Notes: generated from the letters alone by a model not told the origin. 64,000 bases of DNA from Actinomycetota bacterium (GCA_018830645.1 JAHJSA010000069.1:55279-119278); one strand, 5' to 3'. Counted from the stretch's first letter, positions 30,060 through 40,156 are shown. Numbers and translations: made by a program.

Positions 30060-31370
30060 TCAGCCCAAGCTGGGCCCGCGCTGCAACGCGTAGTTGACGA
30101 AGCGAGAGCCGAGCTGCTCGCTGGCCAACAGGCGGTCGGCGGCGGGCAGGGACGTCAACACGCCCACTACCTGGCCGATGAACCTGTTGCCCCTGCTGGA
30201 GCCTTCGTCCACGATCAGATCGGCGAGCCGCCCCTTCTCGAGGCAGCTCCGCACCACTCGCTCGAGCGTGTTCACCGGGATTTTGGGCTGCTCCGCGCGT
30301 CTGACCATACGCATGGCATCCCGGCGGCACGCTCCCGCGCACACACCGCATCCGATGCACCGCTCCGCATCGACACTCGACACGAGTGCACTCCGCGGGG
30401 ACGCTTCGACGTACTGCGGTCGCATGACGATGGCGCCGATGGGGCAGGCCTTCGCGCAGCGGCCGCAGCCAGAACAGGCTTTGTCATCGGACTCCGCCTG
30501 GAAACCGCTCGGCACGACCGCCGGTAGGTCGTACCGGCGGATCGCCGATAGCTGCGCACAACAACACGCGCAGCAACTGCAGATGTAGGTGGGCCGCTCC
30601 TGCACGTTGTCGGCGATGTGCACAAGCCCAAGTTCCCGAGCCTGCACCAGCAGATCCAAAGCCTCGGTCCGCTCCACAGCACGCCCGAACCCCCGCCTGA
30701 TCACGTAGTCGGCCCCTCCGTTGAGGGTGAGGCAGATATCCGCGGGCCGGTCGCAGGCGTGCCCGAGGTGCTGGGCCTTGTGGCGGCAGTAGCAGATGGA
30801 CACAGCGTGATGGGCGGCGGCGCCCACCACCTCCGAGGCGCGCTCCCAGTCGAGTACCTCGGGCAGGTCGGCGGCAGCCACCCCGCTCTCGTGCACCAGC
30901 GTACGCCCGACCACCGTCCTGCTGCCAAAGACCTCACGGGCGAAGGAGTCGTCGCCGGCGGTGTAGGCGTCGAGCGCGCGGGCCATGCGCTCTTTCGGGA
31001 TAGAGTCCTGGGCACGCATCATGGAGAACTCGAAGAAGCCCACCACCGGCGGCGCCAGCAGGTACGAGGTGTCGCGCCGGCCTCGACCCGGGATGTCCAT
31101 GACGACACCCTTGTCGGCGAGCGCTTCGAGACGGGGTTCGAGTTCGCCCACTGCCATCCCCATGCGGCCCGCAAGAGCCGACGCCGTGATGGGCAGCAGG
31201 GGCATGCGCGACGCCACAGCCGCCTCCTCGGGCGTGAACAGTATCTCGAGGATCTCGCGCCAGCCCGCGCGGGCAGCCTCATCGTCCGGCTCGGGCATGG
31301 CGACAGGACCATGCTGAAGCCTATCGGCGAGCGCGCGGTATTCTTCGTTCAGATGGCCGATGTGCCCCAT
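30060..31370 (-). CDS. Fe-S protein, paralog A: winged-helix-like N-terminal domain + Cys-rich CCG-like segment + two [4Fe-4S] ferredoxin motifs
   Basis: SICYCRHK...GHACD...ICL, CSCCACCCAQ, CSGCGRCAKACP and CIGCGVCAGAC. Clearly paralogous to 33070..34185. Confidence 0.7.
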   Translation of the reverse strand: MGHIGHLNEEYRALADRLQHGPVAMPEPDDEAARAGWREILEILFTPEEAAVASRMPLLPITASALAGRMGMAVGELEPRLEALADKGVVMDIPGRGRRDTSYLLAPPVVGFFEFSMMRAQDSIPKERMARALDAYTAGDDSFAREVFGSRTVVGRTLVHESGVAAADLPEVLDWERASEVVGAAAHHAVSICYCRHKAQHLGHACDRPADICLTLNGGADYVIRRGFGRAVERTEALDLLVQARELGLVHIADNVQERPTYICSCCACCCAQLSAIRRYDLPAVVPSGFQAESDDKACSGCGRCAKACPIGAIVMRPQYVEASPRSALVSSVDAERCIGCGVCAGACRRDAMRMVRRAEQPKIPVNTLERVVRSCLEKGRLADLIVDEGSSRGNRFIGQVVGVLTSLPAADRLLASEQLGSRFVNYALQRGPSLG

Positions 31371-36504: not shown

Positions 36505-36954
36505 ATGAGCGCAGGCGGCACGACCAAGGTGGAGCGGATCCTGGAAGAGAAGGGCCGCACCGTCCACACGATCGAAGCTGACCGCACCGTCTTCGAGGCT
36601 CTGGAGGTCATGGCCGAGCACGAGATCGGCGCCCTCATCGTCCTCGACGAAGAGCAGATCGTGGGCGTCCTCACCGAGCGCGACTACGCCCGCAAGGTCA
36701 TCCTCGCCGGACTCTCCTCCCCCCGCACCGAGGTGCGCCAGGTCATGGCCTCCCCGGTGGTCTACGCGACGCTCGACGAGACCACCGAAGAGTGCATGGC
36801 CGTGATGGCCGACAAGCACATCAGATACCTTCCGGTGCTCGACGGCGAAGACCGGCTGGTGGGAGTCATCTCCATCGGCGACTTGGTCAAAGCCTCCATC
36901 GCCGAGAAGGAGTTTGTGATCAGCCAGCTGGAGAAGTACATCACCGGGTACTGA
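36505..36954 (+). CDS. CBS-domain pair protein
   Basis: Two CBS motifs (GALIVLDEEQIVGVLTERD; RYLPVLDGEDRLVGVISIGD). Confidence 0.8.
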   Translation: MSAGGTTKVERILEEKGRTVHTIEADRTVFEALEVMAEHEIGALIVLDEEQIVGVLTERDYARKVILAGLSSPRTEVRQVMASPVVYATLDETTEECMAVMADKHIRYLPVLDGEDRLVGVISIGDLVKASIAEKEFVISQLEKYITGY

Positions 36955-37069
36955 GGCCGCCGCCCTGCATGGTGGGCGCTCCGCCGAGGACGCCCACTCC
37001 GCGGACAATCTGGACGAAGATCGACCTCCACGGTTGACTTGACCTCACTGTTGTATATCCACTCATCCC

Positions 37070-37570
37070 ATGGAACGCCCCGAACTCGCCATCGCCCCCC
37101 ATTGCGTAGCCGCTCGGCTGCGCCTCCTCAACCGAGCGGTGACCGGCATCTACGATCGAGCGTTGCGGGCCCACGGTCTGAAGACCAGCCAACTGAACGT
37201 GCTCGTGGCTGTGGCGACGCTCGGCCGGCCGGAGCCCGGCGACATCGCACGACTCCTCCACATCGCTCCCTCTACTCTCAGCCGGAACGCTGAGCGGATG
37301 CGCGCGGCGGGCTGGCTCGACATCGCGGCGGGGAAGGACGGGCGCTCGCAGACGCTTTCCCTCACTGCAGGGGGAGCTGAACTCCTGAACGCAGCGCTAC
37401 CCGCGTGGGAGCAGGCCCAGGAAGAAGCCGAGGCCCTGCTCGGCGAGGCGACCACCTACGCCGTCCTCCAGGCAGGAGACCGCCTGTTGGCGGCCGGCTA
37501 TGCCCAGACCGTCGGCATCCCCACAAGACCTTCGAACACGAAAACCACCGACAAAGGACGGATAGCATGA
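37070..37570 (+). CDS. MarR family transcriptional regulator
   Basis: LKTSQLNVLVAVATLGRPEPGDIARLLHIAPSTLSRNAERM is a MarR wHTH. ATGA-coupled to the downstream gene. Confidence 0.8.
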   Translation: MERPELAIAPHCVAARLRLLNRAVTGIYDRALRAHGLKTSQLNVLVAVATLGRPEPGDIARLLHIAPSTLSRNAERMRAAGWLDIAAGKDGRSQTLSLTAGGAELLNAALPAWEQAQEEAEALLGEATTYAVLQAGDRLLAAGYAQTVGIPTRPSNTKTTDKGRIA

Positions 37571-38933
37571 ACCTTGAGGACCACCCCACAGTCCGCTGGT
37601 TCCGCGAGCAGAAGGCCGCTGGCGAAGCCACGGCCACGTCGCAGGAAGACGGAGGAGTGGCCCAAGCGCTCACCCTCGAAGCCGCCCGGCTTCGGGCGAT
37701 CTGCCTGGAGGCAGGCGCCGACGCGCCGGTTTCGTCGAGATCGACCGCCCGGCGCTGGCAGGCCAGCGGGCGGGGCTTCTCGACGCCTTCCCCGGCACCC
37801 GCACCCTCGTCGGGCTGGTCTACCGCCTGAACAGGGGGAGTCTCAGGTCGACCAAGCACTCGAACGCCGGCCTCGAGTTCAAGCAGGCCTGGGATCACGC
37901 GAACCGCGCAGGGCGGGCGGCAGTCAAAAGACTCGGCGCCGAGGGCATCCCCGCGCTGAACGCCCCCGCGGGCTTCCCCTTCGACACCGAGGGCTGGCCC
38001 GGTGCTATCTGGTTCACTGCCGACAAGATCGTCGCCGAGGAGGCCGGGCACGGCAAGATGGGGAAGCACCGCTGCGTCATCCACCCCACCTTCGGCGGCG
38101 CCGTGGTGCTGAGCACGCTGCTGATCGCCGCCGAAGTCGATGCCTACGGCCAACCCCTCGACTTCGACCCCTGCCTTGATTGCGGGCTCTGCAACGGCGT
38201 GTGCCCCACCGGTGCCATCGCCAAAGACGGCGCCTTCGACTTCGTGAGCTGTTACGCCCACAACTACCGCGAGCGACTTGGAGGCTTCCAGAGTTGGGTG
38301 GAGAGTGTCGTGGCCTCTTCGAGCGTCAAGGACTACCGCAAGCGGGTGAGCGACCCGGAGACGGTCTCGATGTGGCAGAACCTCTCGATCGGCGCACAGA
38401 CGAAGTGTGACAAGTGCATGGCCGTCTGCCCGGCCGGCGAAGCCGCCATCGGCGAGTACCTCCCCGACCGCAAAGGCTACACCGAGCAAGTAGCTCATCG
38501 CCTGCATGACCGCGACGAGACCGTCTTCGTAGTGCCTGGTTCAGACGCCGAAGCCTACGTGACGAAGCGCTTCCCCGAAAAGCGTGTGAAGCGCGTCTCG
38601 AGCGGTATCCACCCGCAGTCCGCGGCAGGATTCATCGAAAACCTGCCCCTGGTGTTCCAGAGCGGGCAGTCGGCCGGGCTCGACACCACCTACCACTTCA
38701 CCTTCACCGGCGCCGAACAACTCGAAGCGACAGTCGTGATCCGCGACGGCCGGCTTGAATCCCAGCGAGGCCACGCCGGCACTCCCGACCTGCACGTGAC
38801 CGCCGACGCCGAGACCGGGGTGTCGTTCCTTGCCAAGGAGACCAGCCTGCCCAAAGCTCTCGCCACCCGCAAACTGAAGATCAAGGGGTCGCCCAAACTG
38901 ATGATGTCGTTCGCCCGCTGCTTCCCGCTCTAG
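37567..38933 (+). pseudogene. QueG-like cobalamin/[4Fe-4S] reductase (DUF1730 + ferredoxin motifs) fused to a C-terminal SCP2 sterol-carrier domain; -1 frameshift near 37717-37727 in this sequence
   Basis: Frame 0: MNLEDHPTVRWF...RLRAICLEAGADA. Frame +2 continues ...AGFVEIDRPALAG...GHGKMGKHRCVIHPTFGG...CLDCGLCNGVCPTGAI...CDKCMAVCPAG... then an SCP2-like tail (KLKIKGSPKLMMSFARCFPL). Confidence 0.6.
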
Positions 38934-38995: not shown

Positions 38996-40156
38996 TCAGT
39001 GCCCGGCGTCCGCCCAGAAGTCGCGGGCCGGTCGCAGTGCGCCGTAGCCGAGGGCGTCGTCCATCTTCACGAGAGCGCGATTCAAGAACGCGCTCCGTCT
39101 GCGGACAAGGACGCGGGCCGCGTCGTGTATGACGCCCAGAGCCTTGTTGAAAGGGCACACCCTGATGCAGGTGGCGCAATCCATGCGGTTCTTGGCCCAG
39201 TAGCCGAAGCACTTCTCGGCGTCGACGTACCACTTGCGCGGGCCCGACTGATTGGAGATGTTCGGGCCTTCCGTAGTCATGGGGCCGGTGGGTATGGCCC
39301 GCGAAGGGCAGCGTTCCGCGCACTTCTCGCACGACTCGCAGAACTCCACCACGCCGAAGGAGCGGTACTTGTCATGCGCCAGGGGAAGGTCTGTCAACAC
39401 CTTGCACAGCCGCACCCGGGGGCCGAACTCAGGCGTGACAAGCACACCCATGCGGCTCCATTCCCCCAGCCCCGCGGCCATGGCTAGGGGGACGCTGAGC
39501 ACCGTATCGTTGCCACAGGGCAGAGCCCGGTAGCCCAGGCCACGGATGAACGAGGCCACCAGATTCGCCGTGAAGGCCATCTTGGAGTAGCCGAGCCCGG
39601 TGGCCGCGCCCCCCACGCCCGTCGGAGCCGATCGGATGCCCTCGTAGTCCATGGCCACGGCTATGACGACGGCGTTGTCGATGCCCTCGGGCACCTCGAA
39701 GGGGCGATGCTCGCGCTCGAGCAGGTCGAACTCGTGGGAGTATACCCAGTTCGGATGGAGGGCGCAGATGCCCACGAGATCCGCGCCTACGAACCGCGCC
39801 ACCCGTTTCACCACAGTACTCATGCCTTCCGGGGTGTCCTCCACCGGGGGGCCGGCCTCCAGGTACGGGAGCATCTTGGGGTGCACGGCATCCCACGAAT
39901 ACAGGCCGTGGTTGCTGCGGGAGTTGCCGCAGGCGGCAGACCACTCCAGACTCCACGTGCCGTTCCGGAACGCGTAATCGAGACGCTGGAACCCAGGCTT
40001 CTTCTGATAGACGATGTCGCGGTAGAAGCGCTCCGCATCGGCATGGATGGCCTCATCCCACACGCTGCGCTTGAACATCTCGTTCTTCTGATCGAAACGG
40101 GAGTCCGCGACTGGGAACGGCGGAGATTCGGGAGGGTCGGGGTGCTGCTGCATCAT
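38996..40156 (-). CDS. RdhA-like (reductive dehalogenase / QueG superfamily) cobalamin-dependent Fe-S reductase; cytoplasmic, no TAT signal
   Basis: About 110 aa precede VKRVARFVGADLVGICALHPNWVYSH. Motifs FCESCEKCAERCP and C-x10-CATCIRVCPFNK follow. No RRxFLK twin-arginine motif and no adjacent rdhB. Confidence 0.65.
   Translation of the reverse strand: MMQQHPDPPESPPFPVADSRFDQKNEMFKRSVWDEAIHADAERFYRDIVYQKKPGFQRLDYAFRNGTWSLEWSAACGNSRSNHGLYSWDAVHPKMLPYLEAGPPVEDTPEGMSTVVKRVARFVGADLVGICALHPNWVYSHEFDLLEREHRPFEVPEGIDNAVVIAVAMDYEGIRSAPTGVGGAATGLGYSKMAFTANLVASFIRGLGYRALPCGNDTVLSVPLAMAAGLGEWSRMGVLVTPEFGPRVRLCKVLTDLPLAHDKYRSFGVVEFCESCEKCAERCPSRAIPTGPMTTEGPNISNQSGPRKWYVDAEKCFGYWAKNRMDCATCIRVCPFNKALGVIHDAARVLVRRRSAFLNRALVKMDDALGYGALRPARDFWADAGH

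Follow-up and report, generated by a model that had tools for sequence, protein, structure and literature searches.

Introduction

To our knowledge, the corrinoid-binding fold shared by the reductive dehalogenase RdhA and the epoxyqueuosine reductase QueG has two established activities only, organohalide reduction and tRNA epoxide reduction. SCP2 domains serve as accessory modules in other systems, and in the sulfatase YjcS/SdsA1 and in UbiJ/UbiT they bind hydrophobic substrates for a catalytic partner. Here we describe a gene that joins the two, an RdhA/QueG-type reductase core followed by a C-terminal SCP2 domain, in a 64,000-nt stretch of DNA from an Actinomycetota bacterium (GCA_018830645.1, JAHJSA010000069.1:55279-119278; hereafter the window). 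The gene is split by a frameshift, and we conclude that this copy has, in all likelihood, been inactivated by a real and recent loss of one base.

In Bacillus subtilis QueG, the HEAT-like domain that binds the tRNA anticodon stem-loop comprises Leu257-Leu385 (PMC5175355). Proteins that carry SCP2 in this place have generic database names, such as 'SCP2 sterol-binding domain-containing protein' and 'epoxyqueuosine reductase QueG/putative sterol carrier protein'. Among open-access papers and preprints we found none that joins SCP2 or 'sterol carrier' with QueG, reductive dehalogenase, or cobalamin plus 4Fe-4S, and the literature searched yielded no functional study of the family.

A one-base loss splits the reductase-SCP2 gene

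The start codon of the reductase gene, the ATG at 37567, overlaps the stop codon of an upstream MarR gene as ATGA. Rereading the frames bore out the initial annotation, which had described frame 0 from this ATG followed by frame +2 open as far as 38933. Frame 0 reads MNLEDHPTVRWFREQKAAGE...LRAICLEAGAD and then runs through out-of-register residues to a TGA at 37828-37830; the resulting open reading frame (ORF) is 87 amino acids (aa) long, 52 of them native and 35 out of frame. In frame +2 no stop interrupts the stretch from 37578 to 38933, and the first ATG, GTG or TTG is the ATG at 38058.

In the DNA alignment with the intact orthologue L001 there is one gap only, of 1 nt (window GACG-CGCCGG against AACGACGCCGG; in longer form, GACG-CGCCGGTTTC against AACGACGCCGGTTTC). 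This places the missing base in codon 53, between 37723 and 37724, inside the interval of about 37717-37727 where a one-base loss had been proposed. The damaged codon reads G?C, at a position where the family consensus is Asp and Ala is found in the nearest relative. In its entirety (100% coverage, E-values down to 1e-244), the repaired product of 455 aa can be aligned with homologues about 445 aa long, and its nearest intact homologues are 79, 77 and 77% identical. Since the repaired protein matches its homologues from end to end, the reading frame is not a chance opening in GC-rich DNA (66.6% GC in this region).

We consider real, recent inactivation of the reductase gene by this one-base loss very probable. 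With the base missing after 37723, native translation stops after 87 aa and residues 54-164, most of the corrinoid-binding core, are out of its reach. The sole part that could still be translated is a 291-aa remnant with the ferredoxin domain and SCP2, read from the internal ATG at 38058.

The remnant ORF and the sister lineage

The gene order M20 peptidase, CBS, MarR, reductase/SCP2, (convergent) RdhA and 2-oxoacid:ferredoxin oxidoreductase is common to the window and to the Thermoleophilia metagenome-assembled genome (MAG) GCA_054642435.1. A sister lineage with about 86% DNA identity is represented by GCA_947085635.1 (L009) and, independently, by Logan ERR3478701. In this lineage a deletion of 1.08 kb, corresponding to window 36960-38039, has removed MarR and codons 1-158. 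The deletion junction falls at a 7-bp microhomology, GAGGCCG, with L009 3970-4005 corresponding to window 36952-36960 joined to 38037-38045. What the sister keeps is a 291-aa ORF from the ATG equivalent to 38058, now 16 nt past the CBS stop. In the window, codons 54-164 in frame +2 are free of stops and, at conserved columns, of private changes, indicating that the window frameshift is recent and independent of the sister deletion.

Two independent lesions, the frameshift and the 1.08-kb deletion in L009/L010, have thus spared exactly one and the same ORF. This observation argues for a functional truncation, in which the remnant is expressed from 38058 and selected as a stand-alone protein (a lipid-binding electron carrier, for instance), with the loss of the catalytic core convergent in two sister lineages. 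The start sites are consistent with such expression: in the sister the ATG follows the CBS stop so closely that co-transcription is expected, and in the window a GAGGAGG lies 14 nt upstream of it. Between the lineages, the ratio of non-synonymous to synonymous rates (dN/dS) in the 291-aa ORF is 0.118 at a dS of 0.385, which resembles the neighbouring genes (0.06-0.23), and with two outgroups the changes on both branches are mostly synonymous (19 synonymous and 5 non-synonymous in the window, 24 and 9 in the sister).

We nevertheless judge selection for a stand-alone remnant to be unlikely. Neutral evolution is allowed, by our estimate, for at most the last 11-14% of each branch, and a low dN/dS is expected if the lesions cover no more than that. 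An ATG at this point was available by chance, as M165 is kept in at least 90% of 118 homologues. The fold argues in the same direction. In an AlphaFold (AF2) model (pLDDT 85.9, pTM 0.80) of the intact orthologue P0003, which is 77% identical and was modelled in place of the window copy, residue 165 falls within the core sheet, immediately ahead of the two final core strands (171-173 and 180-187). A product begun at 38058 would lack nearly the whole corrinoid-binding domain and open with two orphan strands. Each remnant is also short of one otherwise invariant residue: at columns invariant in the 118 intact homologues, the window has the private change W418G and the sister E236G, and only 10 of the 118 intact sequences have private changes of this kind. 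The loss of such residues is modest evidence of relaxed constraint. Clear natural stand-alone homologues of the remnant form were not found; a candidate, P0187 (295 aa), was set aside since it has an overlapping upstream ORF in a long contig and looks like another frameshifted copy.

We therefore prefer recent inactivation, with the locus in the window lineage apparently at an early stage of decay and its reductase activity lost. Several points weigh against this interpretation. The low dN/dS fits continued selection on the remnant as well as it fits a very recent lesion. The argument from invariant residues consists of one substitution per lineage (nominal p ~0.007), in a clade that forms a divergent branch of the family. 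An intact allele may persist as a minority in the population, our basis being assemblies and not reads. Finally, corrinoid binding, electron donor, substrate and reaction type are what we infer from fold and domain content.

Sequencing error and recoding as causes

The initial annotation had proposed three causes for the split frame, one of them an indel introduced by sequencing or assembly. In that case the gene would be intact in the organism, and the GC-rich sequence and the single affected base would fit such an error. We give this explanation very little weight, however, because the same frameshift recurs elsewhere. The exact 87-aa product was called on five contigs, and the four loci that were read (ENA ERZ27247117, Logan SRR6514730, Logan SRR18052864, and ENA ERZ927988 from ERR2191546) matched the window at 100% identity along 3800, 3800, 1221 and 843 nt. 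ERZ27247117 is the source contig itself (MEGAHIT k141, 135,927 bp) and may assemble one of the listed runs, so the count is given as at least three other runs. A literature search on the sample accessions yielded nothing relevant. The assemblies with the frameshift come from different pipelines (MEGAHIT k141, MEGAHIT k127 and Logan), and no near-identical intact allele was present among the 5.8 billion clustered proteins searched. The agreement of different runs and assemblers at a site that is not a homopolymer makes an artefact very unlikely, and a sequencing or assembly indel is effectively excluded as the cause.

Least probable of all is a programmed -1 ribosomal frameshift or transcriptional slippage that gives back the full-length enzyme: a -1 shift at codon 53 would yield the exact family sequence and a hairpin can form a few nt downstream of the lesion, but the 250-nt two-frame overlap (37578-37830) is free of X XXY YYZ heptamers in every phase and of runs of five or more identical bases, the hairpin is no more stable than shuffled sequence (z -1.32, with 22 of 200 shuffles folding as well), the orthologues sequenced with short reads are all single-frame at the lesion point, and the sister lineage has simply deleted the region. 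Recoding at the lesion finds no support. A non-canonical start (CTG or other) in frame +2 upstream of the lesion was rejected as well, as there is no Shine-Dalgarno sequence and the invariant H6 and P7 would be lost. Scanned from end to end against Rfam, the window gave neither a riboswitch nor any other RNA.

Recent pseudogenisation is the only one of the three proposed causes that survives. The orthologues sequenced with short reads, a comparison that the initial annotation had suggested for frame continuity, are not broken at this point. The features of the locus are collected in Table 1.

Table 1. Features of the reductase-SCP2 locus, with positions counted from the first base of the window.
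Feature	Position	Strand	Evidence
MarR-family regulator, 166 aa, with conserved N-terminal Cys C12	37070..37570	+	PF12802 MarR_2, 37.5 bits
Reductase codons 1-52, original frame 0	37567..37722	+	Aligned to intact N-termini, including invariant H6, P7 and G50
Frameshift site, one base lost from codon 53 (G?C)	37723..37724	+	Gap against L001; same ORF in L005-L008
87-aa ORF from the native start, TGA at 37828	37567..37830	+	Translation; exact protein on 5 contigs
Codons 54-164, frame +2, most of the corrinoid-binding core, without a usable start	37725..38057	+	No ATG/GTG/TTG before 38058
Residual 291-aa ORF: last two core strands, ferredoxin-like domain, linker, SCP2	38058..38933	+	Starts at M165
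First [4Fe-4S] motif CLDCGLCNGVCP: C203, C206, C209, C213	38172..38207	+	Cys invariant in 118 homologues
Cys229, presumed fourth ligand of the second cluster	38250..38252	+	Invariant; role inferred from the RdhA/QueG pattern
Second [4Fe-4S] motif CDKCMAVCP: C281, C284, C288	38406..38432	+	Cys invariant in 118 homologues
SCP2 sterol-carrier-type domain, Pfam span	38673..38921	+	Modelled fold begins near aa 350, ~38613
Codon GGG, Gly418; Trp in all 118 intact homologues	38817..38819	+	Alignment
386-aa reductive-dehalogenase-family protein, convergent neighbour	38996..40156	-	TIGR02486 221.7 bits, cut-off 160

The repaired protein belongs to the class-III cobalamin superfamily

In a domain search of the repaired protein, PF02036 (SCP2) matched aa 370-452 with 36.5 bits (cut-off 21.3). 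The 455-aa product thus carries the SCP2 domain that had been predicted for it, at the C-terminus and in place of the HEAT-like tRNA-binding tail of QueG. Pfam also matched the ferredoxin-type cluster motifs and, weakly, PF14864 (Alkyl_sulf_C).

The label 'QueG-like' proved too narrow. In NCBIfam, TIGR00276 (QueG) reached 43.4 bits of a cut-off of 200, restricted to aa 152-231, and TIGR02486 (RdhA) reached 21.4 bits of 160; PF13486 (Pfam cut-off 24.3) was not reported for the repaired protein. What holds of the label is a core of the RdhA/QueG superfamily, with eight Cys (C203, C206, C209, C213, C229, C281, C284 and C288) that are invariant in the 118 homologues and present in the window. Their pattern, CxxCxxCxxxCP...C...CxxCxxxCP, corresponds to two [4Fe-4S] clusters. 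The 'DUF1730 GxDxxG core' of the initial annotation could not be confirmed as such: neither Pfam nor NCBIfam lists a DUF1730 match for the repaired protein, while a G-A-D-x-x-G-F-V motif is conserved in the family, with G50 and G55 invariant. The N-terminus, MNLEDHPTVRWFREQ, contains no twin-arginine motif on direct reading.

Profile and fold comparisons agree on the wider assignment. By hhalign, the family profile matched the neighbouring RdhA with 95% probability over 259 columns, and a profile search of the PDB returned QueG (5d6s, E 2.9e-8; profile 143-225 against QueG 162-242), a match that covers the final part of the corrinoid core together with the first cluster. Comparisons of the P0003 model gave 13.6 and below for SCP2 proteins, 12.7 for the SCP2-like domain of the sulfatase YjcS, about 9 for MMACHC/CblC and 8.5 for UbiJ. 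The class-III arrangement, a nitroreductase-like corrinoid-binding core followed by a ferredoxin-like domain, was found by hhalign to RdhA and on P0003. On this profile, fold and Cys evidence, the protein is a member of the RdhA/QueG class-III cobalamin superfamily and stands outside both named families.

Two other parts of the protein are strongly conserved. The insert of about 50 residues between the Fe-S motifs (38262-38405, aa 233-280) ranks with the best-conserved stretches of the family, with Y234, E236, G240, F241, W244, Y257, R258, E265, S268, W270 and Q271 conserved; the model gives it low confidence (pLDDT under 50 at 238-244 and 261-275), and it may be a lid or a substrate-binding element. 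The C-terminus ends in F-A-[RK]-C-F-P (window 38919-38930), in which F449, C452, F453 and P454 are invariant in the 118 homologues. This is an unusual end for an SCP2 domain, and we know of no counterpart of the invariant C-F-P tail in SCP2 accessory modules.

Distribution and gene neighbourhood of the family

Among 8000 candidates scored, 2995 sequences matched the family at E <= 1e-3, and 185 representatives of a 50%-identity library did so at E <= 1e-30. The family occurs mainly in Thermodesulfobacteriota and in some Actinomycetota. We recovered 49 family loci from species-representative genomes, mostly of Desulfomonilaceae, Syntrophaceae/Syntrophales, Desulfobacterales and Desulfatiglandales, with a few from Actinomycetota (Gaiellales/Thermoleophilia). 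Family members are also split into two or three ORFs in four loci on long contigs from MFD and similar MAGs (L038, L049, L060 and L065); the splits may come from indel errors in long reads and not from real lesions.

The only recurrent neighbours across the 49 loci are upstream regulators. A homologous MarR gene lies directly upstream on the same strand in 24 loci, and a TetR gene in 11. A Cys at the start of helix 1 of MarR (window C12, 37103-37105) is aligned in 24 of 25 regulators, and from this conserved Cys alone MarR could be a thiol sensor. The position of the Cys (also in L012 and L014-L062) recalls the one-Cys OhrR sensors. An assignment of MarR as OhrR was dropped, all matches being of generic MarR type and below cut-off. 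One TetR resembles AcuR (178 bits, below cut-off). An AhpD/CMD-like neighbour in the TetR-type loci had no Pfam support and was likewise dropped.

SCP2 is not present in every member. The enzymes of nine of the 49 loci (L051, L052, L054-L059 and L062) lack it and are about 337 aa long; in all nine, a gene for a 4HBT hotdog thioesterase separates MarR from the enzyme gene, and three further loci (L029, L033 and L036) show the same order. This arrangement suggests that alternative acyl-binding accessories serve the same reductase core.

The convergent RdhA neighbour of the window is syntenic in two related MAGs (L001 and L009) and is not adjacent in the other family loci. Its adjacency was therefore rejected as a trait of the family, being limited to close relatives. 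The neighbour itself has a dN/dS of 0.077, lacks a Tat-like N-terminus and is short for an RdhA. Elsewhere in the window, a 436-aa protein (30060-31370, minus strand) matches Pfam only in a two-[4Fe-4S] domain close to the C-terminus. Its counterparts in L001 and L004 (308 and 401 aa) occupy the same neighbourhood and lie beside a flavodoxin and a UbiE-type methyltransferase.

Proposed activity of the intact family

SCP2 and hotdog modules both bind acyl chains or acyl-CoA, which points to a hydrophobic, possibly acyl-type substrate. Judging from domain content and gene neighbourhood, the intact family probably reduces such a hydrophobic substrate. In the mechanism that we propose, electrons from a low-potential donor would travel by way of the two [4Fe-4S] clusters to the corrinoid, which, once reduced, would attack a C-X bond or an epoxide-type C-O bond in a hydrophobic, possibly acyl-chain substrate that the SCP2 domain would present to it. 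The adjacent MarR/TetR repressor, responsive to a ligand or to thiols, would control expression, with induction by the substrate or by a related stress.

A broader proposal joins these elements with the state of the locus. The family would form a third functional branch of class-III cobalamin enzymes, stress- or ligand-induced under a Cys-MarR or an AcuR-like TetR, in which SCP2 (or a partner hotdog thioesterase) would bring a lipid or acyl-chain substrate, perhaps a lipid epoxide or a halogenated fatty acyl, to the corrinoid; the two N-terminal losses would then reflect selection for a stand-alone Fe-S/SCP2 protein and not plain decay. Taken as a whole, this combination seems to us decidedly doubtful.

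The local result is an ordinary one, a one-base pseudogenising mutation for which recoding is unsupported and an artefact very unlikely. The wider interest lies in a family that has the catalytic chassis of RdhA/QueG fused to a lipid-carrier domain. The proteins of interest are intact orthologues such as P0003, P0028 and P0054, rather than the window copy. To identify the substrate would add to the known chemistry of B12 enzymes, with possible relevance to anaerobic lipid repair or to the turnover of organohalides.

Comparison with known systems

RdhA (PceA, 4UQU/8Q4H; catabolic NpRdhA, 6ZXU; TIGR02486, PF13486) has the same order of domains, a corrinoid core followed by an 8-Cys two-[4Fe-4S] ferredoxin-like domain. 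The family member differs from it in falling below the TIGR02486 cut-off and leaving PF13486 unmatched, in having a highly conserved insert of about 50 residues between the cluster motifs and a C-terminal SCP2 domain, and, compared with the respiratory type, in being without a Tat signal. Neither an rdhB-type anchor nor a conserved small membrane protein is among the recurrent neighbour families of the 49 loci, from a survey that included no search aimed at rdhB.

QueG (TIGR00276; 5D08, 5D6S) has a catalytic Asp134/His106 pair above the corrin. The likeness to it takes in the last part of the corrinoid core and the first cluster, and both proteins are cytoplasmic single polypeptides with a substrate-recognition domain appended C-terminally. 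In contrast to QueG, the family member misses the TIGR00276 cut-off, and the appended domain is SCP2 instead of the HEAT-like tRNA-binding domain. With the SCP2 accessory modules, namely the C-terminal domain of the alkyl/aryl-sulfatase YjcS/SdsA1 and UbiJ/UbiT, the family shares PF02036 and, weakly, PF14864, whereas the partner of SCP2 in this family is a corrinoid/Fe-S reductase.

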